64,000 bases of DNA from Alphaproteobacteria bacterium GM202ARS2 (GCA_014323835.1 JACONH010000012.1:95363-159362), one strand, 5' to 3'; positions 5,902 through 58,914 are shown, counted from the stretch's first letter. Numbers and translations: made by a program. Notes: generated from the sequence alone by a model not told the origin.

Positions 5902-6126
5902 GATAAGATTACGTGTATAAGACTACCACAGATGTGTCTTTTTTTGAAAGAGAGATAAGACACATATATACAGTGTTATAGTCTATCATACATCGTGGGG
6001 GTGGGGCGGGCGTGGGGTGTGGGTGTGACGGGGGTCGAACAGGGGTGCTTGCGGTTACACGTATATATAGTGCATATATATGTGGAGGGTTTGGTTTTTA
6101 TGTTTTGAATGATTTGAGGCGTATCG

Positions 6127-8881: not shown

Positions 8882-8955
8882 GCGCCCGTAGCTCAATTGG
8901 ATAGAGCGTCTGACTACGGATCAGGAGGCTGGGAGTTCGAGTCTTCCCGGGCGCG
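8882..8955 (+). tRNA. tRNA-Arg (anticodon ACG)
   Basis: Hand-folded cloverleaf. Acceptor GCGCCCG/CGGGCGC, D-arm GCTC..GAGC, anticodon stem TCTGA/TCAGG with loop CTACGGA (ACG), T-arm GGGAG-TTCGAGT-CTTCC, discriminator G. No encoded CCA. Followed by a T-run. Confidence 0.85.
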
Positions 8956-8981
8956 CTTTTTTATTTTTTGCACGAGTCATG

Positions 8982-9010: not shown

Positions 9011-9050
9011 TGGCTATCTGTTTTACTGTCACGTCAAAGGAGATTGACCG

Positions 9051-18000: not shown

Positions 18001-21000
18001 GCACGCCGACGATGGACAACTTGAACCCGACTCGGTATGGGCATGGGCTTATGGACTTAGAGTGTGCCACTCGTGCCAGCTTAACGCAGGAGCGTTGCCG
18101 CACAGCATCAGACGCGCCGTCTGTGTGCTTGGCGAACGGTTTTGGGCATAATGGTTTTATTTGTGTGACCACAGGCATTACGACTGGCGATTGTGGTCGA
18201 GCAGGGGGCTTGCTGTCGGGCACTTCTTGTATTGCCGCGAGTGCCTGCACGGGTGGTATGGTGATTAACGTGGACAATGACGAGTGCGTTTCGTCATGTG
18301 AGACGACAGATGTTATTGGTGCTGGTGGTCGTTTTGCGACCAACAGGTGTTATACGGTGGATACGTGCATTATGGCGGGCGGGGGCTTGTCGGCTATGAG
18401 CAACGGCATGTGTGCCGCGGCGAATGCGCGGACGTGTCATAATGCTGGTGCGGATACGTATTTCTATGATGGCTCGAGCCGATGTGTTACGGATTGTGGC
18501 ATGAACAATGTGGGGCGGGTGAATGGCACGAGCAACTCGTGCATAACGCAGACTATGTGCCGTAGCAATAGTATCAGGGGTGCGGTTGTTGGTGGTGTGT
18601 GTGAGATGGCATCGGCGGACAATTGCTTTGCTGATGGTGGCTTGGGCTTTATGACCAATGAGTGTGTGACGGCATCTGAGGGGACGTGTAGTGAGGAAGC
18701 CAACTATGTCTACGATGGCTCGAGTGCTTGTGTGCCGGGTGCCAATATCAATGTTCGGGTATCGGGCATTGATACGCGGGTAAAGGCTTTGGCGTTGTTT
18801 ACGGGTGACAAGGCAGAGGCAACGGCGTCGGATGCGGTGAAGAACATCCGCACCGAGTATCAGGCACAGCCGTCTTTGGCTCATGTGCATGCCGCGCAAG
18901 CGTATGTCAGCCAAGTGGCAGAAACCGGTGAGACGGTGAGCAATCTGAGTCAGTTGGCTATTGGTAAGGATAGTTTGATTAACGTGATAACCAATCGGCG
19001 TTTTGACCCGACGCACCCTGAGTTCTCGTCCTCTGCCGACGGTGCCGAATACGAGACGTTGACTCGCTTTGAAATCGGCACGGATGATAACGAATTTACC
19101 AGCGATGCGAGGGATATCACTGAGGGAAGCAACAAGATTATCTCGGCAATTTTCAATCAAGATACGGGTGATAATCCGCGGGTTATTTCTTATGAGAACT
19201 GGTTCCAAGCGGGTCGCTCGTTCATATCGGTCAGAGTGCCGCAGATTGATGGTAGGAATTTCGATGAGATTTCTCGTAGTGGTGCGGGCTTTACATCGAC
19301 TGACACTAGCAATCAGGTTGGCTTGGACTTATTGGCGTTCTTCCAGACGATTCTCGGTGGGGACAGAGTTGGCTCTGTGACCTTTGACGGTGACGAAATT
19401 CTTTATAATAGTAACGAAGCCATAGACTTGGTATCGAATACCGACCATGGCACGGCGCGGCGGTTCAATCATATTGGGCGGGTGTATGCGCGCGGTAATG
19501 TTGGTTCGTATCGTGTTTTTGCCACAAGAGTCATCGATGGCGTGCGGCAGAATAATAACAACTATGCGAGCGGTATTCCCAATGAGGCGAATGCGGCTGA
19601 GATGGGCTTGTTAGTGTTGATTAACGGCTTGTTGGATGGTCAAGGGGGCGCGACAAACACGCATGGCATTGCACCGGGGGCGACGTTGAATGTCTTTGCG
19701 ACGCCGACTTTCAGTAGCGGTAATAATGTGGCTGATTGGACTCTGCGGGCCCGTGGCATCGATTTGGGACGTGATAGGGACGGTAGCGGCAATCTGATAG
19801 CGGATAAGACTCGTCATATTGTGTTGATTCAGAATGGCGTTGCCGATTCGGGCACGGGTAATGCGGTGAATCGCAATAGTGTTAATTCGGCAGGAAGAGG
19901 CAGTGGGGCTTATCGTGGTCTTTTGCCTAACTTGCAGTTGGGTGTCAAGGCGCCGGGCTCGGCAACCGCTGAGGAGCTCAGAGCACAAGATATTTATGTG
20001 TTTGCCGCGGCGGATAATCGTAATACGCACAAGGATGTGGGTATTCTTGCCGCGATGCCGTTGGCGACAGAGAATAGCATTAACATCAGTCCGTATTCGG
20101 TTGCGGTGGTGGCTGCTGAGAATGCGGCGAATGCTCATTGTGGTTCGGTGGCGCGTTCCTTCTGTCTGGCGGCACCGGGGTCGTATGCGTATCGCACGAA
20201 AACCGGCGGCTCGTATGGCGGTGGTGATGACACCATTGCGGTTGCCCGTGCGACCTCTAATGCTGCGGCGTCACTGGTTGCGGGTGGCTTTGCTATCCTC
20301 GAAGAGATATTTGGCGACCAGATGGGCAGTCATGATTTGGTGCAGCGGATGCGTTTGACCGCATCCACGTGCTTTAATGTGCAGGGTGCTGCGGGGGATC
20401 CGTGGAATAGTGATACGAACACCTGTGATAACAGCAAGAACGACTATGTTGGTGATTCGGCTAGTCAGCGTCTTGGCTCGGTGCCGGGGGAGAACCGCTT
20501 CGGGCATGGGCTTATGGACTTAGAATGTGCGACAAGAACGGCTCTTGAGCGTGATGGCTGTCGCATAGCGTCTACGGATACCGCGGCGGGTTGCTTGGCG
20601 AACAATCAAGGGTTCAACGGCGTGACTTGCACGGCGACCGGCATTACCGCCGCCGAATGTGTTGAAGCGGGCGGTATTAGGGAAGGCACCATGAATCGTT
20701 GTATTGCGCGCACGGCTTGCACCAGTCCAAGGTTGTTTAACCTTGACAACAATACGTGCGTTGATATGTGTGATCCTGGCGAGGGGCGGGCATCGGGTAG
20801 ACGCTGTGCCGCGGCGAGCGATGAAAACTGTAATAACTTGAGTGTTCGCTATGATGTTGGCAATGATACGTGTCGTGGCGACCAGAACTGTGGGAATAAT
20901 GAATTTCGTGGGGATAGTAACCTTGGGACGAACTCGTGTTATACGGTGGCTTCCTGTGGGAGCAATGGTGGCGGACGAGCCAACGCTGGCTCGGGTCTGT

Positions 21001-24000
21001 GTGTGCCAGCAACGGAAGCGACCTGCTACAATCTTGGTGCGACAACCCGTTACTTGCAGAATGGCGACTGCGTGACCAGTTGCACGGGTGGTGAATTGAC
21101 TCGTTCTATTGCGATGATGAATGTTTGTGTGTCTGATACGAACTGCCGTGGCTCTCGTCAGGGTGCGGTGTCTGGCACCACGTGCATTGCCCCCAGTGCG
21201 ATGGCGTGCAATGATGATGGCATGCGTGCCTTTAACAATGCGATGGATCGGTGTGTGGTTTCGTGCATTGCCAATGATAGCGGACGGGGTCGTGATTCCA
21301 GTCATAACTGTGTTGGGGCAACGGGTGCGTCTTGTCGTCTTGCTGGTGGCAATAGCAATACGATGGGTTTCTTTGATAACAGCGATAGTGCCAACCCCAC
21401 GTGTGTTGCCACTGCGGGCGATTGTAGCGGTAGTCAGTTTGGCGAGACGGATGGCAGTTCGAATACCTGTGTTACCAGCTGCACGAATCTGACGTATGGT
21501 GTCGATGATGATGAAATCTGTGTTATGCCCAGCAACCAAGATCAGTGTGGCAACGCCAATCGTTTCTTACAGGGCGGTATCTGTGTGGCTGCGTGTTCGG
21601 GGACGACCGACATTGTTGGCGGGGCATTGTCGGGCATGGATGCCACCTGTGTTGCTGTCACGGCGTGTATCGCTGGCAATTTGGGTGTTGAGAACGGCGA
21701 GTGTGCGACCGCGAATGCAGGGACGTGTCATGGTGCGGGCGAGAACACGTATTTCTATGATGGCTCGTCCATGTGTGTGTCCGATTGTGGCAACAACAAT
21801 GTTGGCTTGATTGATAGAACCGCTATGCAGAACACCTGTGTGACCGAGACGAATTGCCGCGACACACGTAATGATGCGATTATCGATGGTGTCTGTGTGG
21901 CGGCGAGTGCTCTGACGTGCTTCCAAGATGGCGGTAGGGGCTTTGATGGGACGAGCAGCTGTGTAGATGCGGCGGCGGATACGTGTCTCAGCACGAGTAA
22001 CCTGATGTTTATGAATGGTAGCTGTGTCTCGTCATGCACGGCGGGTCAAGGTTTCCGTGGTGGTAGCTGTGTGGCTTTGACGGGGTTGACGACAGGGCAA
22101 CAGATTGAAGCGTGTTCGAATATTGGGCGTTTGTATGACCCTGTGGATGGCACACCGACGTGTGTGGCGGCTGGCGCGAATTGCAGTGGTGACTTGGTGC
22201 AAGGACGCCGTGAGATTAACGTGAATGGTGTTGTCTCGAATACGCAGTGCATTACGGCAATGGCGTGTGGCGATGCTACGTATGGTGTTGCGAGTAAAGT
22301 GTGTGTCGATGCGGCGGCGGATACGTGTCGTGCTGCGGGTGATTCCACGTATTACTTTGATACGGATGGTGGCTGTGTGACCATGTGTTCTACGGACGAC
22401 CGTCTGTATACGTTGAATAGTGCGACGGCGGGTAACAGCTGTGCGACGGTGGCAGAGTGTCGTGCGGATACGGATACGGGCACTGCGTTGCGTGGGGCGT
22501 GCATGACAGCATCGGTAGAGAACTGCTTTATCGATGGGGGTAGAGGCTTTGATAGTGGTGAGTGTTTGACACCGACGCAGGCGAGTCATTGTGATTCGAA
22601 TGCCAACTTAGTGTGGAATAATGCTGACAACTGCGTCAGCATGGAGCGGGTTAATGTTGCCGTCAGTGGTATTACGTCTCGCCAGCTGGCAGAGGAGATG
22701 TTTACCGGCGATGTCGATGATACCTCAGCTGACATTGTTATCAGGAGCATCCGCCAAGAGTATCAAAATCAGCCGTCACTGGATATTGTGGGTGCCGCGC
22801 AAGCGTATGTTAGCAAAGTGGCAGAAAGCAACGCGGATATTATGAACCTCAGCGAGCTGTCTTTGGGTAAGGATAGTGAGATTAGCGTGATTACCAATGC
22901 TCGTTTTGATCCGAATCACCCTGAGTTTGCCTCTTCCCGTGGCTCGACCTTCGATACGTTGACGCGGGTGAGTGGATTTCGAACTAGTGTCGGTCTTCAG
23001 TTATCCAATATTGTCAATGAATTCTTTGGTGGCGATATGACGGCTACTGGCAGGCGGGCTACTGCTTATACGTTTAGTATAACTGGTCAACGATTTTACT
23101 TTACCCTACCGATAGGGGAAATCGACAGCATGCCTTTTGAAAATCTCGCACGAGATGACGTGACAGCTTCTGGGACGGCTAGAGCAAACCAGATACGTGA
23201 TATCTTGCGTCTGTTGACCGGGAATACAGAGGGCGAGTTTAGTGGTGACCTCAGTTTTAGCGATACGGGTTTCCCAACGGGGACGGCTAGTCGTTTTATT
23301 CAAATTTCTCGGATGGCAGCGGATGGGGTCAACCATGTCGGGCGTATTTATCAGAATAGTAACATTGGCTCGTATCAAATTGTTCTGGGCAGACAAAAAG
23401 TGCGTGAGGCAGACGATAAAGGCGAGTGCATCGGCAACAACAACTGTTATTCCTCATCCGGGGGTGTCCCGTCAGCGGCGAGCGATGCCCAGATGGGTGT
23501 GTTGGCTTTGATTAACGGCTTGTTGGATAGTCGCGGTGGGGCTGAAAACACGCATGGCATTGCTCCTGCGGCAACGTTGCATGTGTTCACCGCGCCTAAG
23601 GTGGGGGCGACAGGGCATAGCAGTGCTGATTTGATTTATCGCGCACGGAGCATCGACCCCGCCCGTGATTTAATGGATGGCACGAACACCATTATTGCCG
23701 ATGACGACCGCAACATTGTTCTTATCCAGAACACCATTGCGGTTACGGCTCGCACGGAAGCGGCGACTGTTGCCAATGTCGGTGATGTTGTTGGCTTGGC
23801 AGGAGCACCGACCACGTTGGATAATGACTACAAGGGGATTTATGATGCGTTGCTCGTGGGTGTTGATGCGGATTCGGCAACGCAGGATGCTTATGTCTTT
23901 GCGGCGGCGGATGGGGCTAGAAGCGATGTTGGTTTGTTGGCGGCGTTGCCGATAGCGACCAACTCGAAGCTGGCTGAGTATTCTATTATTGTGGTTGCGG

Positions 24001-26858
24001 TTGAAGATGGCGAGACCACCTGTGGCAGTGTTGTTGCGGTGCAAAATATATGTATCGCGGCACCGGGTGCATATAACTATCGCACCCGTGAGAACGATGG
24101 GACGTATACGTCCACCACGTTGGCGACAGCAACGACCGCGAATGCCGCCGCGTCATTGGTTGCGGGTGGCTTGGCTCTGTTGGAGTCTATCTTCCCGACT
24201 GAGACGACTGCCAAATTGGTTGACCGACTCTTGTTGACGGCATCGCAGAACTATGACCTCGATAACGACCTGAATATTGACTGGACGGCAGAAAAGCACG
24301 GGCAGGGCTTGTTAGACTTGGCGTGTGCGGTGCGTCCTGCCTTGAACAGCGTATCGTCTCGCACCCGCACGGGTTGCACCGATAGGTTTGGGGTTTCGGG
24401 GGCGGCGGCTTGTTTGGCGAATGGTCAGGGCTGGGATGGCGCGAATTGCGTGACCTCAAGCATTACGGCGATGCAGTGCGTTGCGGCCGGCGGTGTCTTG
24501 CAGGGGACGATGTGTATCAGACGTGATGCCTGTTCGACCTTCTTTAATACTGACGATGATGAGTGTGTCACGTCTTGTGCTACTGGGGAAGGGGCTACGT
24601 CCAGCAGGATGTGCACGGCAACGGGTAGTGTGGGTAATTGTGCCAATGCCTCGCGCTTACTCGATATGGGAACGACCACGTGCGTTACCAGCACTGTTTG
24701 CACCAGTGACCGCAGTAGGATGAATAGTTTTATCAGCTCGGGTTCGTGTGTCTCGATGTGTGCCGCCAATCAGGGCGTGGATAGTAACTTTATGTGCACC
24801 TCAACCAGCATCGATGGCGATGCGTGCGGCAGGGCGGGGCGTTTGCTCGATTTTGGCACGAGCAACTGTATCAGCAATACGATGTGCACCGATAGAAGCA
24901 GTGGTAATCAGTATGTCAATGCGGGTGCGAAGACCTGTAGCACGGGGCGGGATTGTGCCGAGGGACAGGGTATTATCAATGATGCTTGTGCGGATGTTTC
25001 TACTTTGAGTGGCAATGCTCTGACGATGGCTTGTGAAAGGGCGGGTAGAATTGTCGAGAGTGGGGCGTGCGCGGTGGGTGCTGTCGATGAGAATGCGATT
25101 ATCGAAGCCTTCCGTGGCACGGGTAACACTGCGGTGACCAGCGACCTTGCCAGCACCTCAGGCATTACCGATTCGAGTGACACCGATGCCAAACGCCGTT
25201 TGGAGTATGCCAATCAGCCGTCATTGGATATTGTTGGTGCGGCGTTTGCCTATGGTAAGGCGGGCGATGGTGCTGCTGGTATCGATGCCGCTATCGCCAA
25301 GGCTGGTGAGGGAAGCAATATCAGCGTCATTATGCCTCGACGCTTCGACACAACGCATCCTGAGTTCTCATCCTCTGCTACTGGTGTCACCTTCGAAACC
25401 TTGACGCGATTTCAGATTAGAGAATTAAACGACGGTAGTCGTATTATACCCACTCTTGTCTCGACTATCCCGACGTTCTTTACAGGTGATAGCGATGAGC
25501 AGGTGCTCGTTTATAATGACGGTTTTGCTGGTAATATTAGATTTCTGGCGGAGATACAGGTGCCGACCCTCGATGTGGGTGGCACCCCGACGGTGTTTGA
25601 AAGCTTTTCCCGCAATGATATCGACGGCAATAGCGATGCCCGTAACGCGTTGCTGACGTTCTTTAAGACCATCCTAGGCGGAACGGGAGTGCCTGATGTC
25701 GACGCGGTGATGCTTCAGGAGCGAAATAATGGGAAGTATCGCCTTGTGCTTGCACTGGCACAAAATGGTAGGCCTGCATATGTTATATCTTTTACTGATG
25801 ATAATAATTCTCAATTTAATTTCAATCATGTCGGACGTGTTTATGGCAGTGGCAGTAACATTGGCTCACACCGAGTTGTTGCAGATGCTTTACGTAGTAT
25901 TCGCAGTGATGCCGACAAGGGTGAATGTATAGATAAGGCTTGCTACGGTGGGGCACCTGTTTCGGCTAATGGTGCTGTGATGGGTGTGTTGGCTTTGATT
26001 AACGGCTTGATAGACCCGGATAAGGATGGGGTTGCCTACAACACGCACGGCATCGCCCCGGGGGCAACCTTGAATGTGTTCACCAGTAGTGACCGCGTTG
26101 GTGGAGAAGGTGGTTTAGACAATCCTGTTGACCTCGCTTATCAAGCCCGCAACATCGATGTGATACGGGATAGGGATAGTGGTGGCACCTTGGTTGCCGA
26201 TAGCCAGCGTGACATTGTCGTCCTCCATAATTATTTAGTAGATGATACGAGCAGTGAGGCAACCAGCACTGGCTTCAGTAGTGAATTCACTGGTAACGTG
26301 TTGAGTTTCCGCACCGCTCTGGCTTTGGGTGCAGGTGATAGTGTGATGCAAGATGCCTTCATCTTCGCCGCCCGAGATAGTGATGGTGTATCGAACGAAG
26401 GTGGCACTCAGCGGCAAGGTGATTTGGGCGTTGGTTTTGAGGATGATAATGGGGTAGTCACTGATGTTGGGGCATTCTCGGCTCTGCCGGTGTCGGATAC
26501 GGCTACCAAGACGGCTATCGGTGAATTCTCTATCATCGTTGTTGCTGTCGAGGACGGACAGACTCCATGCGGGAGCAACGCCGACGTGCAAGCAATTTGC
26601 ATCGCCGCCCCGGGTGAGTTCCGGTATCGCAACCGTATGAGCGACGGCAACTACGCCACAACCCTATCCACAGCAACCAGTGCCAACGCCGCGGCGTCAC
26701 TGGTGGCAGGTGGCTTGGCTCTGTTAGAGTCTATCTTCCCGACTGAGACCACCGCTCGTTTGATTGATAGGTTGTTGCTCACCGCCGCCAAGGTCTACGA
26801 CTTGGATGAGGATGGTGTCAACGACTACGGCACAGATGCCACCAAGCACGGTGGATGA
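9051..26858 (+). CDS. giant surface protein (5935-aa ORF). It has a lipoprotein-type signal, a Pro/Thr-Asp-Pro-Gly linker, five degenerate subtilase(S8)-like modules and cysteine-rich repeat arrays. The ORF ends prematurely inside a 49-bp tandem duplication.
   Basis: GTG start with an SD. N-terminus MPIRLVLLLSLFVLGGVSSC. Five modules repeat the motifs YANQPSLD-VGAAQAYVS, ISVITNRRFDPSHPEF, NTHGIAPGATLNVFT (like the subtilisin GVAPSASLYAVKV segment), CLAAPGAY-YR (APG box) and ATSNAAASLVAGGFALLEE (like GTSMAAPHVAGAAAL). The modules are separated by dozens of Cys-rich repeats (C..ADTC...YFYDGSSRCVTDCG.GNARRTVGTSN.C). The stop TGA at 26856..26858 lies inside the second copy of the duplication. Confidence 0.7.
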   Translation: MPIRLVLLLSLFVLGGVSSCSSGDSPSSSAWVPPRVVVEGRAGTRPDPGTRPTDPGPTDPGPTDPGVVPPGDPDGTEILVSNDRGTTLRGTQDFQSGQQSPVLMALLEEVEEADTEEEASMSRLESLFGFGSGVTEQQERTRSSFEYANQPSFDKVGAGFAYYDRTRTQPSSGGLSAFQDDGGLLYDRTGAGSSIRYLTDRRFGNFNGTTGRFTDTIGSHPELALSGGEALVRAWSDDITSRVAGALLFDPYVRREERKLLYTYNRLGTLQHHSSAAVRQPRALAIPFLNQGASTTPPADIVAVLFHPDPIPTPPRVNVHGADPSPLTVEDSRIITAFNRETLSSISAGIDDSAYVVARRSVLARIIDSGVPGFDFLVDDNGNPVLVDENGDVVPTDSSGDPLDSNIDINTLDFAYTEDVGYTYGDVFVQTVFAAYDLPWGATAGDFRSVGEEATAEDIGLLALIRGLVNPEDSINLAALRVSSHGIAPGAELGVLTTHGLREVGDCVSIARPTSSATAVGTCDSTGGSDYGEVKAVRGGVNLYDAILRAGAPRGVGRGNIILFDNRLQASGLSMVLATRDITQLPFADNNLWHIESQRAGGFSTDLGDYYTRVSDGTVALRPTLAADNGVKVYEQDGYKAKGTEVTTFDDTTLTPQQIVFAIIDGHYGANTILRSRNDLGADAQRALRLLLGMRHSLQRNDDSVVEDYDALIFAAQEQGGDIGLFAGLPLQVDLLVDARRAAAEADFALALRDGLSERDILQRAFAAGHRYDAGRQTLRTEITVDNVDGEPIAFHRRVFHRVPPALNDDLNNSQVSLTSFEFLEGSNQLRVVFSNGNSYTIERGLNEQGVANDFPEGQGHYYYAAAREVLFKVAGARTWVFHAVPQWLVDGLDSSASFEFVDNRNEVRVTLSDGRVHVLDVPTDLETPLPYYLAVVAAESGATPCGVVAQDFCLAAPGAYTYRDPGSDEAYDEDDTLETTTATARAAASLVAGGFALLQEVFDGQLNTAELVARIKQTASQNFDLDGDGNNDYTQMDGGAERYGHGLLDLECATRASLDRSRCRPATTETREFSPQACLLQGRGVNVAGDGCASASRSACRALALQGAVFDSANSRCVSETGCLGVQGRVIDFEVGECLTDARACPADRPNVADGRCSQRISAEICANSGRFLLEESSSGSAFLTEANRGFRCVDSCPAFQGVRDGNVCVGDTARCGPDGRGSRTVPGDDPGVSRCVSSLDDSFTEDTCSAAGRFVSSTGDACVARCAAGEFVGVAMGGTLPVTCMSTCPSRGVRDSTDNCISRSACVGSGVVSSDNRQCFTDGDDCPAGYGVYKNQCTSRVINDDSCSEASRFVGADRRTCVASCEGGQFVGAGSLGANTCYSVDLCQAAGGGREAINSGDCVTATALSCYNLGSVTYLYNGMRGAEAACVDTCASGEVRQMSGSANQCLSQLGCRELSLVVGQGAEQDLCVAASAIGCARDGGRGFENGACVAASASTCDTKGISFVDGECRSCLRSQGLVGSECRNIDTLPTTAEQITACAALDRLYDPASTARCVATASQCSDNRVQGVSGLTVNGVAADTQCVAVSECIMGGFGLGTNVCAPAAADTCYSADSARYFYDGSSRCVTDCGAGNARRTVGTSNDCPSEMMCRDTSSRAVNNGVCVVADSDTCRADGSRVFSTNKCVANARACINETGDLGYDSTTNSCVMATSPTECLAAGNAFFDGTDRCLAECAAGQGSDTNRECMAVTAANGNVVCGNASRRFDVMADACKSSNTCDVGEFLGDASFGANSCYTVEGCVMASGGRSVSTGVCVGAAADTCRAAGVSTYYFDSARGCVTACDMGGLTVRRALGSGNRCLTPAECRSLPHTGPDRGAVLAGDCVIATANTCAGDDNGGLGFRNGICIEASSTSCDTTMGIQFSNGRCMACNAGQGFVSGSGCTDITTLGTAAAQVDACAAAARLYDPASTVTCVATANDCTQNRIQGRSVVMVNNRPSNSQCISIAECGAGMSGVDTGRNRCVAGTAVTCKAVTSSTHYFDGDDGCVTSCSGVADMRTVTRAITGGNECVTADNCRGMAHTGSVRGAVQNSNNCVVANGNNCAFDDSRAFNGAMTGCVESCIVDDGGRGRSALGQCEAASPASCYRDFQSSADGFYDANASGGARCIEFPNQCANGAFGSSRSLMNECVADCPSSGQGVNSNNICSGVGGLNATERVTNCIRAERIVEGNACTETCSSGTPYYNGTDTCVDAAGCVAINRGVATNAASRFGRQIATAGSCATASAASCHTAGSSTYFFNSGARRCVSDCGAGNARRTVGTNNTCIAETACRNATNRGAVVGGMCVAASADTCFADGGMGFGSGRCVTASATTCNEDLNYVFDADDRACVLGSFVDVALPATITTRADALALFTGDPAEAAAADEVKNIRTEYQAQPSLAQVGAAQAYVSRVPNSGATINNLSQLTIGKGSQISVITNRRFDPSHPEFSSAVTGTDAVDYETLTRFYISVSGRLLNDDFSSATAGAHVFLNRYFSGDSGESPRTVFYTSGYSPFGNFEAYFSARIGQITNMNFDAISRTDTSFDGTTSNPVGVGLLGVFSPLLGGSAVDVTPSFDGFEITYDSSQRVIIVDTASDDDENFNHVGRIYAEGEGNLGSYQIVVTSDTVVRQDNNTYGSDVPDEADAEEMGLLVLINGMLDGAGGATNTHGIAPGATLNVFTSPRVGANRHNSVDLIYRARGIDIARDRDNNGNLIADPVRNIVLIQNTLAHSERNNAVTVANVNDVVGASGSNIADSYKEIYEALQLGVKAPVQGSVTADEKQQDIYVFAAADSRSAQNGVGLLAALPASTSGTSLMPYSVAVVAAEDAASAFCGVTANDFCLAAPGAYKYRDDGADNAYGGSDDTLETASATSNAAASLVAGGFAILEELFGDQLGSDQLVARMLATASQCFNINGGGAEAWNSATGRCENARNDYVGDRGTPTMDNLNPTRYGHGLMDLECATRASLTQERCRTASDAPSVCLANGFGHNGFICVTTGITTGDCGRAGGLLSGTSCIAASACTGGMVINVDNDECVSSCETTDVIGAGGRFATNRCYTVDTCIMAGGGLSAMSNGMCAAANARTCHNAGADTYFYDGSSRCVTDCGMNNVGRVNGTSNSCITQTMCRSNSIRGAVVGGVCEMASADNCFADGGLGFMTNECVTASEGTCSEEANYVYDGSSACVPGANINVRVSGIDTRVKALALFTGDKAEATASDAVKNIRTEYQAQPSLAHVHAAQAYVSQVAETGETVSNLSQLAIGKDSLINVITNRRFDPTHPEFSSSADGAEYETLTRFEIGTDDNEFTSDARDITEGSNKIISAIFNQDTGDNPRVISYENWFQAGRSFISVRVPQIDGRNFDEISRSGAGFTSTDTSNQVGLDLLAFFQTILGGDRVGSVTFDGDEILYNSNEAIDLVSNTDHGTARRFNHIGRVYARGNVGSYRVFATRVIDGVRQNNNNYASGIPNEANAAEMGLLVLINGLLDGQGGATNTHGIAPGATLNVFATPTFSSGNNVADWTLRARGIDLGRDRDGSGNLIADKTRHIVLIQNGVADSGTGNAVNRNSVNSAGRGSGAYRGLLPNLQLGVKAPGSATAEELRAQDIYVFAAADNRNTHKDVGILAAMPLATENSINISPYSVAVVAAENAANAHCGSVARSFCLAAPGSYAYRTKTGGSYGGGDDTIAVARATSNAAASLVAGGFAILEEIFGDQMGSHDLVQRMRLTASTCFNVQGAAGDPWNSDTNTCDNSKNDYVGDSASQRLGSVPGENRFGHGLMDLECATRTALERDGCRIASTDTAAGCLANNQGFNGVTCTATGITAAECVEAGGIREGTMNRCIARTACTSPRLFNLDNNTCVDMCDPGEGRASGRRCAAASDENCNNLSVRYDVGNDTCRGDQNCGNNEFRGDSNLGTNSCYTVASCGSNGGGRANAGSGLCVPATEATCYNLGATTRYLQNGDCVTSCTGGELTRSIAMMNVCVSDTNCRGSRQGAVSGTTCIAPSAMACNDDGMRAFNNAMDRCVVSCIANDSGRGRDSSHNCVGATGASCRLAGGNSNTMGFFDNSDSANPTCVATAGDCSGSQFGETDGSSNTCVTSCTNLTYGVDDDEICVMPSNQDQCGNANRFLQGGICVAACSGTTDIVGGALSGMDATCVAVTACIAGNLGVENGECATANAGTCHGAGENTYFYDGSSMCVSDCGNNNVGLIDRTAMQNTCVTETNCRDTRNDAIIDGVCVAASALTCFQDGGRGFDGTSSCVDAAADTCLSTSNLMFMNGSCVSSCTAGQGFRGGSCVALTGLTTGQQIEACSNIGRLYDPVDGTPTCVAAGANCSGDLVQGRREINVNGVVSNTQCITAMACGDATYGVASKVCVDAAADTCRAAGDSTYYFDTDGGCVTMCSTDDRLYTLNSATAGNSCATVAECRADTDTGTALRGACMTASVENCFIDGGRGFDSGECLTPTQASHCDSNANLVWNNADNCVSMERVNVAVSGITSRQLAEEMFTGDVDDTSADIVIRSIRQEYQNQPSLDIVGAAQAYVSKVAESNADIMNLSELSLGKDSEISVITNARFDPNHPEFASSRGSTFDTLTRVSGFRTSVGLQLSNIVNEFFGGDMTATGRRATAYTFSITGQRFYFTLPIGEIDSMPFENLARDDVTASGTARANQIRDILRLLTGNTEGEFSGDLSFSDTGFPTGTASRFIQISRMAADGVNHVGRIYQNSNIGSYQIVLGRQKVREADDKGECIGNNNCYSSSGGVPSAASDAQMGVLALINGLLDSRGGAENTHGIAPAATLHVFTAPKVGATGHSSADLIYRARSIDPARDLMDGTNTIIADDDRNIVLIQNTIAVTARTEAATVANVGDVVGLAGAPTTLDNDYKGIYDALLVGVDADSATQDAYVFAAADGARSDVGLLAALPIATNSKLAEYSIIVVAVEDGETTCGSVVAVQNICIAAPGAYNYRTRENDGTYTSTTLATATTANAAASLVAGGLALLESIFPTETTAKLVDRLLLTASQNYDLDNDLNIDWTAEKHGQGLLDLACAVRPALNSVSSRTRTGCTDRFGVSGAAACLANGQGWDGANCVTSSITAMQCVAAGGVLQGTMCIRRDACSTFFNTDDDECVTSCATGEGATSSRMCTATGSVGNCANASRLLDMGTTTCVTSTVCTSDRSRMNSFISSGSCVSMCAANQGVDSNFMCTSTSIDGDACGRAGRLLDFGTSNCISNTMCTDRSSGNQYVNAGAKTCSTGRDCAEGQGIINDACADVSTLSGNALTMACERAGRIVESGACAVGAVDENAIIEAFRGTGNTAVTSDLASTSGITDSSDTDAKRRLEYANQPSLDIVGAAFAYGKAGDGAAGIDAAIAKAGEGSNISVIMPRRFDTTHPEFSSSATGVTFETLTRFQIRELNDGSRIIPTLVSTIPTFFTGDSDEQVLVYNDGFAGNIRFLAEIQVPTLDVGGTPTVFESFSRNDIDGNSDARNALLTFFKTILGGTGVPDVDAVMLQERNNGKYRLVLALAQNGRPAYVISFTDDNNSQFNFNHVGRVYGSGSNIGSHRVVADALRSIRSDADKGECIDKACYGGAPVSANGAVMGVLALINGLIDPDKDGVAYNTHGIAPGATLNVFTSSDRVGGEGGLDNPVDLAYQARNIDVIRDRDSGGTLVADSQRDIVVLHNYLVDDTSSEATSTGFSSEFTGNVLSFRTALALGAGDSVMQDAFIFAARDSDGVSNEGGTQRQGDLGVGFEDDNGVVTDVGAFSALPVSDTATKTAIGEFSIIVVAVEDGQTPCGSNADVQAICIAAPGEFRYRNRMSDGNYATTLSTATSANAAASLVAGGLALLESIFPTETTARLIDRLLLTAAKVYDLDEDGVNDYGTDATKHGG

Positions 26859-26901
26859 GGATGGTGTCAACGACTACGGCACAGATGCCACCAAGCACGG
26901 A
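26804..26901 (+). repeat. perfect tandem duplication, 2 x 49 bp (TGGATGAGGATGGTGTCAACGACTACGGCACAGATGCCACCAAGCACGG)
   Basis: Read directly: 26804..26852 is identical to 26853..26901. 49 is not divisible by 3, so the second copy shifts the frame and provides the TGA stop of the upstream ORF. Confidence 0.95.
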
Positions 26902-28497
26902 CAAGGGCTGATGGACTTGGCGTGTGCCATACGCCCGACCCTCGCCACGGGCGACTTGGTGCGCACCGGTTGCACAGACCGTCATCCTCTCGTTTCCCAG
27001 AACGCGCCGCCCTCACAATCCTCAGGACAAAACGCCCCGCCCGCAGCCCAAGAGGAACAAGAACACAGCGAGGATGGGGAACGCACCGAAGCGACCCCCG
27101 CTGAGGTTAACACCGTGGACTACTGCGATATTGACGGCTTGCGGATTATCTTGTCGGGTGACTTGTGCTCAGATGATTACCTGACCCTCGTAGACAAAGA
27201 CGGCAACGTCAATGGCGCGCTGATTGGTAACTTGCGTTTTGGTATGGGCTTTGGCGACTCGTTGTTGCAGGGTATCGGTATCACCTTCTTCGATGCCTTC
27301 GATACCGCTTGGACGGTGGACAATCCCTATAACCCGTATGCGCATCTGTTGAACTTTGGCAATATTGTCATCGCCCCCGCCGAATCCCGCTTCGATGTTG
27401 AAGATAGGTTCTATGCTATGCGTTATGGCACGCGTCCGGGCACGCGCAAAACATGGAACAGCGATACGGCTCGTATCACTTTCGACTTTGCTACGCAAGG
27501 CATGGCGACCAAGCCTTATGCGGTCACCCGTGGGCAAATCCGCAACACCATTACGCACGACAACATTGGGGCTGACCCCTATGCCGATGTCCGCTTTATG
27601 CTCTCTGCTGAGGATTCGTTGGGTGTTGGGCTTGGACGCCTGAAAGTCATGACGTATTCGGGCATGGCGATGGGCTATGCGTTGGGCTTGCATGCACAGG
27701 GCGATGCCATGATGCCGAGTTACTTGCTGACGAATCGTGACTCGTTCCATGCCCCGTATCTGTCTCTGGCGAGCAGTGGCTTAGGTGGCGGTATGACCTA
27801 TCGCTTCCGTGATGGCGGGCATATTGGTTTTGTGATGGGCGAAGGCACGAGCTTAAACGCTGATGGCACACTGCCGTATCAGCAACAGACGTCTCGTCCG
27901 CGGGCTTTCGCGGGTATGATGGAATATGCCCCGCACCGTAACTTGATGTTCCATGCGGGTGCGTTGCAAGAACAGAGCACGCTGTTGGCATCGCAAGGCT
28001 CAGGCTTGTTTGATATTCAGGGTGGCACAACCACCTTCGTTGGCGTGCAAGCCAAACAGCCGTTGACTGATAACTGGCAGGCGTTGGTCAGTGGCTATGG
28101 CGGACGCACGCAGCTTGCGGGGTCGGGCGGTATTGTGTCGGGCTTGGATGTGATGACGTCTTCGTTTGATGTGGGCTTGCTTGGCTCGCATGTCTTGGAG
28201 AAAGGCGACCATCTGTTGTTCCGTGCGGGACAACCGATGAAGGTCGAGTCGGGCTCGCTGGACTTGTCTTATGTGTCGTTCCGCCGTCAGGATAGGTCGG
28301 CAGTCAGTCATACGCAGAGCTTCGATGTTGCCCCGTCCATGCGGTCGGTGGAGTTCGGGGTGGGCTATGGTATGCCCATTGGCTTGAATGGCAGACAAGG
28401 CCACATGCGTTTTGCTATAGACTACGTGCTGAATCCGGGACACCGACGGGTGCGTGATGAGGTCTTTGGCATCATGTCATTCCGCCGCGAATTTTAG
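26853..28497 (+). pseudogene. out-of-frame 3' continuation of the giant gene (linker + autotransporter-like beta-domain), separated from 9051..26858 by the 49-bp duplication frameshift
   Basis: A different frame from copy 2 onward reads DEDGVNDYGTDATKHGQGLMDLACAIRP...FRREF*, colinear with the C-terminus of the downstream paralog (...NQHGQGLMDLECAVRP...FRREF). The C-terminal aromatic residue and alternating beta-strand pattern suggest an outer-membrane beta-barrel. The ATG at 26764 in the ORF track is not a real start. Confidence 0.65.
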
Positions 28498-28508
28498 GGG
28501 AGGGCACC

Positions 28509-31500
28509 ATGAACACATCAACAACACACACTGCAACAACGCAAACTGGGAGAAAAACAACCATGACACTGCTTACTGGCTTTTGTAACACCCTTCGTAA
28601 CATAGGTATAGCCGTCTTTGTGCTTCTTGTTGGAGCCTGCGATTCAGGGACGGAATTCTCGCCGAGTCGAGAAGTCCCCTTCGCACGGTCAGGCGGTAGC
28701 GGCGGTGTCACGCCCACAGACCCGACAACGCCCACAGACCCGGGCACGACAGACCCGGGGACAGTAGACCCATCTCGGGGTGGTCTGGTTGCTGCGTCCA
28801 TTTGTGCGACACCGTATGAGGGCTTGCCGCAGGGCATGACCGAAGCCTCGCAGTGTGTGCGTTTGAACGCGCCAAGCCTCGATGAGAACGGCAACATTGT
28901 GACCAATAGAGATGGCACAGAAGTGCCGCGTTACCGTGATGATGGCATTAGTAGGGAATCGCTGTGCTATCGTGCGGGGCGTAATGACGAACCGCTGGTG
29001 TATGATCACAGCACGGTATCGTGTGTGCGTGCTTTTCAGGGCTGTCCTGATGGGCAGGGAGTCATCCAAGCCCTTGGCAATAACGAGCAAAGTGGCTTGG
29101 GTCGCCGTTGTAGTGGACAAACGCCTGAGAACATTCAGACAATCAGCACGGTGGTTGTGGGTATTGCCAGTGGCGATGATGCGGATGCTCGTCAAGGCAA
29201 GATAGACGCTGCCATTACGGCGGAGCGCATGGCTAATCCTGATGTTGATTTGATTAATGTTGTTGAGGTTTTTTATGACAGCACCGATGATGGCACTGCG
29301 CAAGCGAACAAGCTGCAGGCTGTAACCAACAAAGTCAATGGTGCTCCTCTTGTAGATGGTGAGGCTCGTTTTATCTTCCGCACTGTTGCGGTGGGCATCG
29401 AGCCGACCGACACGCCAGCAGAGCGACTTGCGAAAGTCAAAGCGGCAATCACGGCAGAGCGTGCAACGTTGCCAAGCGGCGGCGGGGGTGAGACGGCTCT
29501 TAATGCCAATTCGATTATTAATGTCATTGAGGTCTTTTACGATGACGGTGACAGCGATGCCGAGAAAGAACGCAAAGTGGCTGAGGCTATGCGGGACGAG
29601 GCACAAGGCAATCGATTCGAGCACCAGCTTTTGTTTGTGACGGTTGCGGTGGGCATCGAGCCTGATGACACGCAGGCGATGCGTGAGGACAAAATCAGGG
29701 ATGCGATTAATGCGCGCCGTGCCGAGGTGCCGAATGCTCTTGCGATTGTAGCGGTGCCGGTTTTCCACGAGGCGGACGACACCGATGACGAGAAAAATGC
29801 AGCTTTAGCTGCGGCTTTGGCGGAAGCGGTGCGGGGTGACAATCAAGAGGCGACTGCGTTGCGGAAAAAATATGGCTCGTATACGGCTGATATGTGTAGC
29901 GCGGGCGGGCGTTTGTTGACGGTGCGAGGCACGGGTGCGGATGCTTTGACGGGGACGGGTTGCACGAATTTGTGTGCGGACGGCACGTTTGTTGGTGATG
30001 GCGGCGGGTCGCGCAGTGCTGGTATTTGTTATAATGATGTTGCGTGCACCGCGAGTGGCGGCGGACGAGCCGAACGTGGCAGTGGTGCGTGCATCGCGGC
30101 ATCGCCTGAATCCTGTTATGGAGTTAGTCGTGCGGGCAGTGAAGGTGTTGCCGCTGTATCGTATTTCTTTACGAATAGTCGGTGTATCCACAATGGCTGT
30201 ATCGATGATATATCGTTGGTGCGGGCGACCAGTGCGACTCGTGGCACGAGTACGTGTACGACTGTGCGGGAATGTTATAATCAACATGGCAGAACGTTGA
30301 CGGGTAATCGTTGTGTTGCGAGTTCTCGGTTGTGTTTGCGGCGCGGTGGGCGGGGCTTTGATGGCGATAGGTGTGTGGCAGCGAGCGAAGACTCCTGTGG
30401 CGGTGGCTTGGCGTTCTATTATGAGGGGCAGTGCCTCAGGGCGACATGTGGCGAGAGGAATGAAATCCCTGATGCCAGACGTTTCGATAAGTGCATCAGC
30501 GAGGCGAACTGCACAAGTGACCGCAGCGCGGCGTTGGCACAAAGCGGTGAAATCTGTGTCAGCAAGCAACAGGGCTGTCCGACAGGGCAGGGTGTCAATG
30601 GGGAGAGATGCACCGAGACGGTGAATGCGGCGACGTGTGCGGATGCTGGGCGATTCGTTGATGTGCGTGGCGGTGGTGGGGCGCGCTGTTTTAATACGTG
30701 TGCGGGACGTGAGGTTATTGCGGGGAACGTCTGTTTGGTGGATACGTGTGCCGCGGATGAGGTGTATAGCCCAACGAGTTTCCAGTGTGTCGATATTGAT
30801 AGCGATGCTGATACCGCGGCGACGCAGTGTCAAGCGGTGGGGCTGGTGGCGAATGTCGCCAATAGCCGTTGTGTCGAGCGATGCTCGGGCAATACGAGAA
30901 TCGCCACGACTGGCACGCCGCGCTGTGTGACGGATGTGACCCGCAGCAGTTGTCTGTCTAATAATCAGGCTTTTGATAGGGCGACGGGTGAATGTGTTAC
31001 GGCAGACCTTGATACGTGTGCGGCGACGGGTGCGTTCTATGATGGCTCGGCTTGTGTTGAGTTTGGCAACAATGCGACGATGATAACCACGATACGTGGA
31101 ACGGATGACGCTGCCGCGGATGGCGTCGATGGCAAGCAATCAGCGGCTTTGGCGGCGTTGCGGGAGGCGATTGCCGCGGTTGATGATGCCGATATTGGTA
31201 GCACACAGGACGTAACCACAACAGTGGATGATGATGACGACCCTAATACGCCTGAAGTCCCTATGGATTTCTTTGGCAATGGGGCGGATTTGTTGTTGTT
31301 GCAGGCTTCCGCCAGCGATACCCCAACCCGAACCATGCTGTTGAATCGTTTGCGAGTGGCGTATGCCAATCAGCCGTCCCTCGACCAAGTGGGTGCGGTG
31401 TTCGCGCACCATGTGGGTGACTCGGGGCGGACGTATGGCTTTGGCTCGACGGTGTCGTATTTTGCCCCGATTCCGACAAGCGACCGAGAGGGTAGCGACC

Positions 31501-34500
31501 AAGGCTTACTCGACCTGATTAGCGGCGGCGGTGATGTCTCGGATGCGGCGGTGACCCTAGGAGAAAACTTTAACTTTGGTGGCATCAAGACCCTGCGTCA
31601 TTCTATCGCCCCAGAAGCAACCCTGAATGTTGTCAATACGGCAGGTATGGCATTACAACGGGATTCAAGTGGTCTCAGAGCTATTGTTAGCAGATCTGGG
31701 ACGAGAACGACAGCAGGAAGTGAAAGTTCCTTGAGATCGCTTATAGACAGGGATGAGTTTGTGGTTCAGCTACAGGATACTAACGTGTATCGTCATATTA
31801 CAGGTGCCGGGGCACCAGCATGGCAGACTCGCGGCAATGTCATTCTCTTCGATAACCGCATGGCTGCCGATAAAGATATACACACTGTCTTCGCGGCGCG
31901 GGCAGCCAACTATTTTGAAGGGTTGACGACCGATACCAATGCCGATGCCATCGACCCCATTGGTTTTAGGAATAGCGTCTGGCGTCTCGATGCTCGTGGT
32001 GGTGCTACTTTAGCGACTTCCAGCTTTACTCGTGACCTTGACGCCTACTTCTATGCACCGGGCACACAAAGCCCGGCTTTCGCCAATGTTAGATACGATA
32101 ATCTTTATATCGATCAGCCTAGGGGGAATAATGAGGTTTACACATTGCCCGGCGGCTTTTTCACTAGGCCCCCGCCCCTCGGCGGCACGTTTCCTCATCG
32201 TCCGCAGGGAGAGCAGTTAAGGAATCTCGTCATCGAAGGGCTGTATGGCACTGGCACACGGCTTTATCCGACTACTCGTGGGCGAGAGACGAGGCTCAGA
32301 TTAGTCGTTAATACCCTTAACGCCCGAACAGACACATACAAAATGGTGGACACATTTAGGCGTTTTGACAACAACGAGCTCAATGTGATTGATGCCATTA
32401 TTGACCTGATGAGACAGCGGGCGGCGACTCCCGATGTTGAGATGGATGCTTTGATTTTTGCTGCTGATGATGAAGCCAGCGATATTGGTTTGTTTGCGGG
32501 TTTACCGATTTATATCGACCGTATCCGTGCGACTCGCGATAGTGGCATTGACTCGCCGTTGCCTTACTATCTGGCGGTGGTGGCTGCTGAGGAAGGTGCG
32601 TGTGGGTGGACGGCGCGGGACTTCTGCATTACGGCACCGGGTTCGTATACGTATGCCGCCAGTGGTGCAACCTCGCTATCGACGGCGACCAGTGCCAACG
32701 CCGCGGCGGCGTTGGTGGCGGGTGGCGTTGCCCTGTTGCAAGAGATCTTTGACGGGCAGTTGGGGACGGCAGAAATCATTGCTCGTTTGAAGGCGACGGC
32801 TTCGCAGAACTTCGATGTGGACGACGATGGCAGTAATGACTATGTCGGCAATGAGGATATTCCCGATGCCGATGATGTCCGTGCCGGGCAGCGTCGTTTT
32901 GGGCATGGCTTGTTGGATTTGGCGTGTGCGACTCGTGCCAGTTTAACGCAGAGGCGTTGTCGCACCATTACGGTGAACAACGTGCTGTCGGATGACGCGC
33001 AAGCGTGTCTGAGGGCGAGGCAGGGCTTTGATGGCTCGGCTTGTATTACGTCTCCGGTCAGCCAAGCGGATTGTGACCTTTTGAATGCAACATTTTCCAA
33101 TGGTCAGTGCATGGCACCGAGAGCCCCTCGGGTTGTGCGTGGTAACCGTCAAACGTGTCTGTCGTCGGGGCGGGGCTTTGATGGCACGAACTGCATTGCT
33201 ATCCCTGTCGTGCAGGAGCATTGTGACCCGCTGAATGCGATATTGGCTAGGGGTAATCGTTGTGTTGCGCCGGGTGGTGCTCCTGCGGTTATTCTTGGCA
33301 ATCGCGACAGCGAAGCCGATGTTGTGGCTCTGTTCGAAACGTCCGCACCGTCCTTTAGTGCGGGGGTGACGAACGTACAGAGACTCGCACGGGAATATCA
33401 GAATCAGCCGAGTTTCCGCACCATTGGCGTTGCCGATGCTTATGCCCGCGGTTCCGAGCGCGTCACTTATGGTAGCAGAACCGACAGATTGATGTTGCAT
33501 GATTTGAATCTGGGACAGGGGGCGCGGATAAGTTATATCACCAACTCGCGCTTTGACCCGAGTCATCCTGAGTTCACCCGGGATGCTTATGTCACCGCTG
33601 AGAACAACCACGTCAGAACTGTGCAGGTGATAGACCCTGTTACGATGATGCCTATGATGGAGACGGTGATAGACCCGGATACGATGACGGAAGTGACACG
33701 AGTCGTAACTCGAGACATCATCACCGAGCTGAGCAAGACGTATGGGGCAGAAAGCAACATTGCTCACCATGGGATTCATATCGAAACTGCCTTTTTGACA
33801 CCGAGGGAAGGTGAGCCTGATATTAGCACGCTTATTGGTGGCATTGATGCGGCGGATATGGGTGTGATGGCGTTGATTAATGGGCTTGTCAATCCGTCGG
33901 GGAGCACCGATGCGGCGACTTATGCCAGCAATACCCATGGTGTTGCACCGGGGGCGCGCTTGGAGGTGTTTACGATACCGCACTTAGGCTTCTATTCGCA
34001 TGGCGCCTTCCGTGTGAATGAACAGACGTTGGTGCGTAGGGCTCGTGGTGCTGATCCTTCGGGTAATAACAATAATTTCCGTAACATTGTTGTGTTTAGT
34101 AACGAGATGATTAGAGAGGAGGCTGAGATTCATCCAGTGACCATGAGGAATCTTATTGAGGTGGTGGACGATAGAACAGACGGCAGGTTCGGTTCGACCG
34201 GGCATATTCCTCTTACAAACCCAGAAGGCGGAGACCCAAGAGATACAGTCGTCGGCTACGATACGACATTTAGAACTTTGGTTGAGAACGTCCGTGCCCC
34301 GCATCGAACTCGCAGTGACATACGGCAAGCCCAAGATATATACGTGTTTGCGGCGTTGGATGGTCGTGGCGATACTCGTGATAGTTCGGGTATCAAGGCG
34401 GGTTTCAATGATGCCGGTTTATTTGCCTCGCTGGTAGCGGCATCGCGTCCTAACAATGACGATGGCACGTTGGGTCGGGCGGTTTTTGCCGATTATAGTC

Positions 34501-38654: not shown

Positions 38655-38657
38655 GGT

Positions 38658-39404
38658 GTGAAGGCTCAAGATTATGCCAGAGAAGGAGAAAATATAGCCG
38701 AAGGTATAAGCTCAATCATCGATTCAAACTTTAAGGATCAGGAGTGGAACAAGACGTTCGCTCGTGTCCTACAGGCACAACTCAAGCAAGCACGCAAAAT
38801 AGGCGGAGAATTACGACTCCGCCTATACGGCTCGAACGAAAAAGAAAATAAAGAAGCACAATACGATATACAAAGTATGGCAAACCAGCTCATCCCTGCG
38901 GATTGGGTCAATAAAAGTAACGAGTGTGGAACGATACACACTCGTAGAATCAGGGGCAGACAATGGCACAGATTCATTAGACAAAACAGCACAATCAAAG
39001 TAGATGACTTGCAAAATCCTATCAACGTAACAGCTGGGGACTCGTTGATTTTTACCGCAGAAAATGAAATTTACGATACCATGCACGAATTCGTTCACAG
39101 ACTACAAAACGTCTTCCCTGACATTCAAGAGATGTTTCAAAGTATCCACGACCAGCGAACTGCTCACGAAGACATAGATTATCTTTATCACGACGGGCAT
39201 GAAGTTGGCAAAAAGGACGATTACATTAACGCATATTTTGGCAGAGTCTATCCACATGGGGGCGCGCTCGAACTTTGGCCTATGTGTTGCCAATCAATCA
39301 TGGGGCATTTATTAGATGACTTGTATTGCCAACGCTTTTTCCTTGAAAAAGACCCCGAATTAGCTTACATAACCATAGGCGTTCTTTTTTGTTTCGAAGG
39401 GTAA
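38658..39404 (+). CDS. hypothetical protein with an HExxH motif (possible zinc-dependent hydrolase)
   Basis: 248-aa ORF starting at GTG 4 nt after the giant-gene stop, in an AT-rich patch. It contains MHEFVHRLQ (HExxH) and several Cys/His downstream. No family could be assigned by eye. Confidence 0.45.
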   Translation: MKAQDYAREGENIAEGISSIIDSNFKDQEWNKTFARVLQAQLKQARKIGGELRLRLYGSNEKENKEAQYDIQSMANQLIPADWVNKSNECGTIHTRRIRGRQWHRFIRQNSTIKVDDLQNPINVTAGDSLIFTAENEIYDTMHEFVHRLQNVFPDIQEMFQSIHDQRTAHEDIDYLYHDGHEVGKKDDYINAYFGRVYPHGGALELWPMCCQSIMGHLLDDLYCQRFFLEKDPELAYITIGVLFCFEG

Positions 39405-58838: not shown

Positions 58839-58914
58839 TGGTGCCCAGGGGAGGAATCGAACCACCGACACGACGCTCTTCAGGCGACTGCTCTACCGAC
58901 TGAGCTACCTGGGC
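58839..58914 (-). tRNA. tRNA-Phe (anticodon GAA), CCA encoded
   Basis: Reverse complement folds as GCCCAGG-TA-GCTCAGTCGGTAGAGC-A-GTCGC-CTGAAGA-GCGTC-GTGTC-GGTGG-TTCGATT-CCTCC-CCTGGGC-A-CCA. The anticodon and T stems each contain one U.U mismatch. Confidence 0.8.

Follow-up and report, generated by a model that had tools for sequence, protein, structure and literature searches.

The window analysed here, 64,000 nucleotides (nt) from the metagenome-assembled genome (MAG) of Alphaproteobacteria bacterium GM202ARS2 (GCA_014323835.1, JACONH010000012.1:95363-159362), carries two giant genes in tandem on its plus strand, and this study concerns the 3′ segments that the two genes have in common. The organism, whose host is the sponge Lamellodysidea herbacea, was placed in the new order 'Candidatus Methylospongiales' and is described with methylotrophy and a type III secretion system; its MAG comprises 1.83 Mb in 49 scaffolds at 53.3% G+C (PMC7313196). 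The two genes appear as very long open reading frames (ORFs) of 5935 and 3381 amino acids (aa), and the end of the first is overlapped by a third plus-strand ORF, of 577 aa, that is read in another frame (Table 1). The gene 1 stop is followed 11 nt later by the start of gene 2, and the gene 2 stop 4 nt later by that of a 248-aa ORF; the two giant genes are probably co-transcribed, and the 248-aa ORF may belong to the same operon. Together the giant genes occupy about 30 kb, or ~1.6% of this reduced 1.83-Mb symbiont genome. We consider it probable that their 3′ segments are old paralogous, barrel-coding sequences preserved by selection, with at most one old exchange in the centre, and that nothing keeps the copies identical today.

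Both giant proteins are predicted from their N-terminal sequences to be lipoproteins with a Sec signal peptide. Gene 1 has a GTG start, an AGGAG Shine-Dalgarno sequence and a hydrophobic leader with a lipobox-like VSSC (...FVLGGVSSC); gene 2 has GGGGAGGG as its Shine-Dalgarno sequence and a hydrophobic leader with a lipobox-like VGAC (...LLVGAC). At the other end, both proteins finish in ...GIMSFRREF, and their relatives in ...WRREF or ...WRAAF. On these patterns, the N-terminal signal and C-terminal aromatic residue (beta-signal) of a type Va autotransporter are both present. Motif mapping placed five subtilase-like modules in gene 1, ending at aa ~988, 2919, 3739, 5033 and 5881, and three in gene 2, ending at aa ~1399, 2060 and 2803. 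When the giant proteins were compared with Pfam and NCBIfam, the only match was a partial S8 domain in one of the eight modules (PF00082, gene 2 aa 1975-2104, E 7.5e-11, profile positions 146-274), and the homology of the other seven to S8 rests on their alignment with this module and with P0008-P0010, true single-module S8 relatives. In the same alignment the catalytic Asp position is a Thr in the modules that align there (VITNRRFD; the first module of gene 1 possibly keeps a shifted Asp, and the first of gene 2 is gapped), an AEEMG-type motif without His (AEEMGLLVLING) stands in place of the HGT motif, and the Ser position is occupied by Asn, Arg or Asp (NAAASLVAGG). All eight modules appear to have lost the Asp/His/Ser triad and resemble pseudo-protease modules. 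Between them lie arrays of paired cysteines, with units such as CVGAAADTCRAAGVSTYYFDSARGCVTAC, at ~12200-16230, 18060-18730, 20520-22630 and 24320-25070 in gene 1 (257 Cys) and at 29900-31050 in gene 2 (80 Cys). These arrays matched no Pfam family; we take them to recall eukaryotic furin/VSP-like Cys repeats.

The first-pass annotation had described the two 3′ segments, 26900-28497 and 37090-38654, as near-identical and aligning almost base for base. Their homology is real and far beyond chance, and no other long pair within the two genes is as similar as the 3′ domain, but both the extent and the identity had been overstated. In a global alignment of these intervals, 75.7% of the aligned columns were identical and 45 columns were gaps. 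With blastn, 27115-28499 matched 37272-38656 over 1399 columns (79.3% identity, 9 gap openings, E=0), and the homologous core (27115-28497 and 37272-38654) is 79% identical in nt and 86.7% in aa over 458 aligned codons. The longest exact run between the segments is 29 nt, and the best 180-nt window reaches 89% nt identity, with none above. A pair of 62-mers quoted as matching was found at 27409 and 37572, but the two differ at 6 of 62 sites. The encoded proteins, said to be identical except for scattered substitutions, approach this only in the central part of the domain (27399-28257; 84% nt, 91.5% aa), whereas the linker that makes up the first ~215 nt of the gene 1 segment (26901-27114) shares only 52% nt and 47% aa with gene 2. 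Just upstream, 38 nt at 26890-26927 and 37060-37096 that encode HGQGLMDL, the end of the last subtilase-like module, are 92% identical. The statement that the passenger modules are far more diverged proved correct: identity between the collinear last modules is 55% in nt and 46% in aa, and the best other long module pairs in the two genes reach 68-73% nt by blastn. Since 21% of sites differ, we rejected an assembly collapse or duplication of one sequence as the origin of the two copies; with a longest shared exact word of 29 nt, a chimeric misassembly between them was judged unlikely.

A further intragenic repeat, reported at about 16335 and 18845, was also recovered. The quoted 44-mer occurs exactly at 16341 and 18840, inside a repeat shared by modules 2 and 3 of gene 1 (16287-16532 and 18786-19031; 82% over 246 nt), and this 44-nt match within gene 1 is longer than any between the two barrel segments.

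Codon analysis by the Nei-Gojobori method gave, for the C-terminal domain of gene 1 against that of gene 2, a nonsynonymous divergence (dN) of 0.096, a synonymous divergence (dS) of 1.16 and a dN/dS of 0.08. The corresponding values for the last passenger module were 0.50, 2.4 and 0.2. At four-fold degenerate sites of conserved residues, the domain copies were 52% identical, against 31% expected from composition (distance ~0.8); over the whole passenger module the figure was 38% (27% expected), and 52% in its best-conserved patch. With dN/dS at 0.08 and synonymous sites near saturation, the excess similarity of the domain is therefore mostly a matter of fewer amino-acid changes, and the similarity of the barrel copies is due mainly to purifying selection on the protein.

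For comparison we used nine related loci (L001-L009) from three ENA metagenome assemblies, most of them with frameshift noise. L001, L002 and L004 show the order barrel, spacer and gene-2-like start, and in L003 the barrel is followed by a 246-aa ORF, as after gene 2. Over the whole domain, the gene 2 copy is closest to the gene 1 copy (79.5%, against 74-78% for the others), and the gene 1 copy is slightly nearer to L001, from another metagenome (80.5%), than to the gene 2 copy. The earlier view had been that concerted evolution through gene conversion homogenises the translocator-coding 3′ ends and that the copies are an active substrate for recombination. Although the 3′ domain exceeds all other long pairs of the two genes in similarity and the two copies are mutual nearest relatives in their centre, this view is highly improbable given 79% nt identity, a dS of ~1.2, the 29-nt longest run, the absence of any 180-nt window above 89% and the slightly greater closeness of the gene 1 copy to copies from another metagenome. 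Because synonymous sites have been hit about once each, recent or ongoing homogenisation is excluded, and the pair is a poor recombination substrate. What survives of the proposal is an old tract with reduced dS in the centre of the domain.

As expected of a converted tract, albeit an old one, dS was 0.85 in the centre (27399-28257), against 2.6 in the flanks and 2.4 in the last passenger module. Site patterns pointed in the same direction: inside the central segment, sites at which gene 1 agrees with gene 2 outnumber those at which it agrees with L001 (95 vs 64), and outside it the balance is reversed (33 vs 79). A maximum chi-square test with permutation on all sites supported a mosaic (p about 0.002-0.004). 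In neighbour-joining trees of the flanks, the gene 1 copy grouped with L001 and L002 at 88% bootstrap, whereas the centre gave a 100% clade of all relatives without the gene 1 copy. The lower central dS and the conflicting trees suggest, with moderate support, one or more old exchanges among paralogues over roughly the central 0.86 kb. It would be unlikely, in our estimate, that no conversion ever took place and that a single divergence was followed by regional differences due to uneven constraint, to saturation and to noise from aligning or sequencing the relatives. Such a history fits the nearly equal dN/dS of centre and flanks (0.066 vs 0.063), so that the centre is slower at both kinds of site, as well as the marginal mosaic tests on third codon positions and the frameshift noise in the relatives. 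However, a three-fold lower dS is not predicted by protein constraint, and it is the topology, not the rate alone, that differs between centre and flanks, with incompatible groupings at 88% and 100% bootstrap.

Gene number varies among the relatives, whose copies cluster by lineage; the two copies of L009, a 632-kb contig, for example, group with L008 at 100% bootstrap. L009 (1-30914) carries at least four giant genes with products of 7852, 3637, 2595 and 4244 aa, as well as one degraded barrel copy, L006 holds three barrel copies, and L008 (1-13618) has seven consecutive subtilase-like modules at ~1760-nt spacing ahead of its barrel. Such counts, at least four giant genes within 31 kb in one locus, three C-terminal copies in another and seven tandem modules in a third, together with the lineage clusters, would be produced by a birth-and-death process, in which whole genes or their 3′ ends duplicate within lineages and clustered copies are young duplicates rather than homogenised ones. 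We find this doubtful as an account of the window pair, since the order of barrel, short spacer and gene-2-like start is common to the window, L001, L002 and L004, and the grouping of the gene 1 flanks with L001 and L002 (88%) implies a duplication older than the split. In L007 (9267-12287) the order runs from a barrel copy through a Fic-domain ORF to a match to the start region of gene 1 (window 9017-9164). The contig concerned, ctg9786c, is 45.5 kb long and its name suffix suggests a circular assembly; the genes may be ordered differently there, or the arrangement may be extrachromosomal or tandem.

Concerted evolution of 3′ segments has been reported for the Helicobacter pylori babA/babB and homA/homB genes, in which the 5′ or allelic regions diverge and conversion is reported to be frequent (PMC3960876). 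Like the giant genes, whose products are predicted for the outer membrane, these are outer-membrane protein paralogues with related 3′ segments. In contrast to their strong intrastrain 3′ similarity (PMC3960876), the window copies differ at 21% of sites with a dS of ~1.2, and the affinity of copies within the genome extends no further than the centre, where it is weakly supported.

Gene 1 is interrupted shortly before its C-terminal domain. The 49-mer TGGATGAGGATGGTGTCAACGACTACGGCACAGATGCCACCAAGCACGG occurs there in perfect tandem (26803-26851 and 26852-26900), which Tandem Repeats Finder reported as period 49, 2.0 copies and 100% matches; the 64 kb contain no other repeat of this kind. The additional 49 nt move the reading frame by +1 nt, so that a TGA at 26856-26858 ends the 5935-aa ORF early. 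Deletion of one copy in silico yielded a single ORF (9051-28497) of 19,398 nt and 6465 codons, whose translation over the junction (...YDLDEDGVNDYGTDATKHGQGLMDLACAIRP...) is collinear with that of gene 2 (...FDIDNDDLNDYDVNQHGQGLMDLECAVRP...); the rest of the 19.4-kb frame showed no further lesion. The first-pass annotation had overlooked the duplication and assigned 26900-28497 to the end of the first giant ORF, when in fact this segment lies in the other frame, within the 577-aa ORF. GenBank likewise splits gene 1 as a consequence of the 49-nt duplication, into the 5935-aa ORF and a 'hypothetical protein' of 561 aa, GDA50_05760, annotated from the ATG at 26812; P0001, a match in the protein search, is identical to this out-of-frame ORF. 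A programmed ribosomal frameshift at the junction was rejected, because the exact 49-nt duplication, missing from gene 2 and all relatives, fully accounts for the change of frame.

Gene 2 and every relative fetched have a single copy at the junction, which makes the duplication a derived lesion, either of the sequence itself or of the assembly. In the deposited sequence it uncouples the 5935-aa passenger from the barrel ORF. The out-of-frame 3′ ORF lacks a signal peptide of its own; with a 5935-aa lipoprotein lacking a barrel on one side and a barrel ORF lacking a signal peptide on the other, gene 1 as deposited should be non-functional, a pseudogene or in an OFF state, provided that the duplication did not arise through an error of assembly. 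Its perfection fits a very recent mutation (pseudogenisation or an unstable, reversible OFF state), heterogeneity in the population, or an error of assembly or consensus. An artefact of the short-read metagenome assembly, which would leave gene 1 an intact 6465-aa gene, is a serious possibility that we place somewhat short of an even chance. For the MAG, Illumina reads (2x100 or 2x150) had been assembled by IDBA-UD and/or Celera Assembler (PMC7313196). The complete identity of the two copies, their being the sole such repeat in 64 kb and the otherwise undamaged frame all favour an artefact. However, perfect copies are also expected from a fresh tandem duplication, and 49 is neither k nor k-1 of the default IDBA-UD k series, which runs from 20 to 100 in steps of 20. 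Pseudogenes are moreover common in reduced symbiont genomes, which likewise argues for a genuine lesion.

The label 'beta-domain' given earlier to the shared C-terminal domain agrees with its predicted fold and, by the sequence test, fails as an assignment to the classical autotransporter translocator family. Neither 460-aa copy was assigned to a family by Pfam or NCBIfam, and the autotransporter beta-domain PF03797 matched neither of them, none of nine relatives and none of 18 trimmed family members (E<=1). Against PDB sequences, phmmer returned only a chance match to a CdiA toxin (E 0.13); a family profile was dominated by its S8 part, and once trimmed to the barrel it matched nothing. A scan of the contigs of GTDB species representatives found no relative. 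With the gene 2 domain as query, only ten relatives emerged from 5.8 billion proteins, and an exhaustive HMMER search over 1.84 billion cluster representatives gave 533 proteins (E <= 1e-3). Among these are the giant relatives P0011 (3637 aa, 83%), P0012 (2107 aa) and P0013 (2177 aa, 58%), but most are proteins of 700-950 aa whose last ~270 residues align to domain residues ~185-460; the first ~185 aa are confined to relatives of the giant genes. Pfam recognised a complete Peptidase_S8 in six of the nine relatives and left their tails empty, except for one weak match to the OprB porin. In the profile search, many family members bear the name 'S8 family peptidase' and come from Novosphingobium, Erythrobacter, Tsuneonella, Croceicoccus and other Sphingomonadales. 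The barrel family comprises several hundred S8 peptidases and is described by no domain database.

AlphaFold2 modelled the 460-aa domain from 40 sequences with a predicted local distance difference test score (pLDDT) of 61, rising to 80-90 over residues 260-420. For the last 310 aa, from 115 sequences, the pLDDT was 74.7 and the predicted template modelling score (pTM) 0.73, with 112 residues above 90 and about 14-16 long strands. On these models the domain is predicted to be an outer-membrane beta-barrel, and its best structural matches are 16-strand barrels. By the sequence test with PF03797 it does not look like the classical autotransporter barrel. The 16-strand outer-membrane barrels chitoporin, OprP, PorB and Omp32, and the PgaA, PelB and BcsC secretins, share 6-12% sequence identity with the window domain, and none of them is fused to a large N-terminal passenger as in the window proteins; the likeness may be one of generic barrel fold only. 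Another comparison is with the single-module S8 peptidases of Sphingomonadales and other Alphaproteobacteria, such as P0010 from Parablastomonas, P0194 from Novosphingobium lentum and P0227 from Croceicoccus marinus, in which the last ~270 aa are homologous to domain residues ~185-460 and the motifs QPLRVESG, PxGRE and PGH and the terminal F are conserved. These peptidases differ from the window proteins in their size (700-800 aa), in a single S8 domain that Pfam recognises in full and whose triad is intact, and in their identity of only 20-30% to the window domain.

In overall plan the window proteins resemble NalP of N. meningitidis and SphB1 of B. pertussis, which combine a lipidated signal peptide, a subtilase-type domain and a C-terminal barrel (PMC9977779); Ssp of S. 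marcescens is a further type Va subtilase for comparison. Unlike these proteins of roughly 1000 aa with one subtilase domain, the window proteins reach 3381 and 6465 aa, carry three and five subtilase-like modules that all appear to lack the Asp/His/Ser triad, and contain huge Cys-rich arrays (257 Cys in gene 1). Their C-terminal domain has neither a PF03797 match nor a sequence match to solved translocators, and the best structural matches of the barrel are to 16-strand barrels.

These comparisons are consistent with a model in which the 3′ segments are old paralogous copies that code for a putative outer-membrane barrel, the last domain of two tandem giant lipoprotein genes made of triad-less subtilase-like modules and Cys-rich repeats. 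By analogy with NalP and SphB1, the barrel would presumably anchor, and perhaps export, the huge N-terminal part at the outer membrane. It is mainly strong purifying selection on the barrel that has kept the 3′ segments closer to each other than the passengers are. Roughly the central 0.86 kb may, with moderate support, have undergone a single old recombination or gene conversion, and in the deposited sequence the perfect 49-nt duplication severs gene 1 from its barrel. Several points weigh against this interpretation. Part of the drop in central dS could come from constraint at the codon level, or from the Nei-Gojobori estimate, which is unreliable near saturation. Restricted to third codon positions, the mosaic test gives weak results (p 0.07, 0.014 and 0.23), and the central clade of the two window copies reaches only 60% bootstrap. 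The comparison loci are error-prone long-read metagenome contigs with mixed strains and many paralogues, among which orthology is positional only. The strand number and the crossing of the membrane by the passenger rest on prediction and inference, a passenger with 257 Cys is atypical for type V secretion, and the 49-nt duplication may be absent from the organism itself.

Without near-identity kept by conversion, the finding on the 3′ segments is mostly an ordinary one, a constrained membrane domain that outlasts fast-evolving passengers. Of the new facts, those of most use are the duplication that shifts the frame, the non-canonical barrel, and the combination of dead subtilases and Cys repeats in giant genes of a sponge symbiont. 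The giant predicted surface lipoproteins, whose family is represented by about a dozen metagenome contigs, are candidates for interaction with the sponge host or matrix. A more speculative combination of these elements, which we think rather improbable as a whole, would be an undescribed class of passenger-linked barrels, larger than the 12-strand type Va translocator and widespread on alphaproteobacterial S8 peptidases. In 'Methylospongiales' sponge symbionts, this class would have been recruited to display multi-kilodalton arrays of dead subtilases and eukaryote-like Cys repeats, with the centre of the barrel exchanged among paralogues and the 49-nt duplication serving as a reversible on/off switch of gene 1.

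Table 1. Features of the giant-gene region, in window coordinates.
Feature	Position	Strand	Remarks
tRNA-Arg(ACG)	8882..8956	+	95 nt upstream of gene 1; ARAGORN
Giant gene 1 as deposited	9051..26858	+	5935-aa ORF; 5 subtilase-like modules between Cys-rich repeat arrays; premature TGA
Out-of-frame 3′ ORF of gene 1	26764..28497	+	577 aa from TTG
Tandem duplication, 2 x 49 nt	26803..26900	+	perfect copies of TGGATGAGGATGGTGTCAACGACTACGGCACAGATGCCACCAAGCACGG
Pro/Gln/Glu-rich linker, gene 1	26901..27114	+	between last subtilase-like module and C-terminal domain; gene 2 counterpart ~37097-37271
C-terminal domain, gene 1 (copy 1 of shared segment)	27115..28497	+	460 aa plus stop
Central low-dS segment, gene 1 domain	27399..28257	+	candidate old conversion tract; gene 2 counterpart ~37562-38414
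Giant gene 2	28509..38654	+	intact 3381-aa ORF: Cys-rich array, 3 subtilase-like modules, linker, C-terminal domain
C-terminal domain, gene 2 (copy 2 of shared segment)	37272..38654	+	460 aa plus stop
Last 310 aa of gene 2, predicted outer-membrane beta-barrel	37722..38651	+	part common to hundreds of single-module S8 peptidases
248-aa ORF downstream of gene 2	38658..39404	+	starts 4 nt after gene 2 stop

The tRNA-Arg gene next to gene 1 prompted us to consider a foreign island, which we rejected since the G+C content of the giant genes (52-57%) fits the rest of the window and the MAG mean of 53.3%. The 248-aa ORF downstream of gene 2 has no Pfam family and no obvious signal peptide, and it is kept after the gene-2-like copy in L003, as the 246-aa ORF at 5808-6548. 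On the minus strand, 1.2 kb downstream of the cluster, 40573-41760 encodes a 395-aa protein that consists almost wholly of TPR repeats, a class common among the 'eukaryote-like' proteins of sponge symbionts. Farther on, an AT-rich 101-nt tandem repeat (3.2 copies, 89% matches) occupies the intergenic stretch 59673-59999, near a tRNA-Phe gene (58839-58914).
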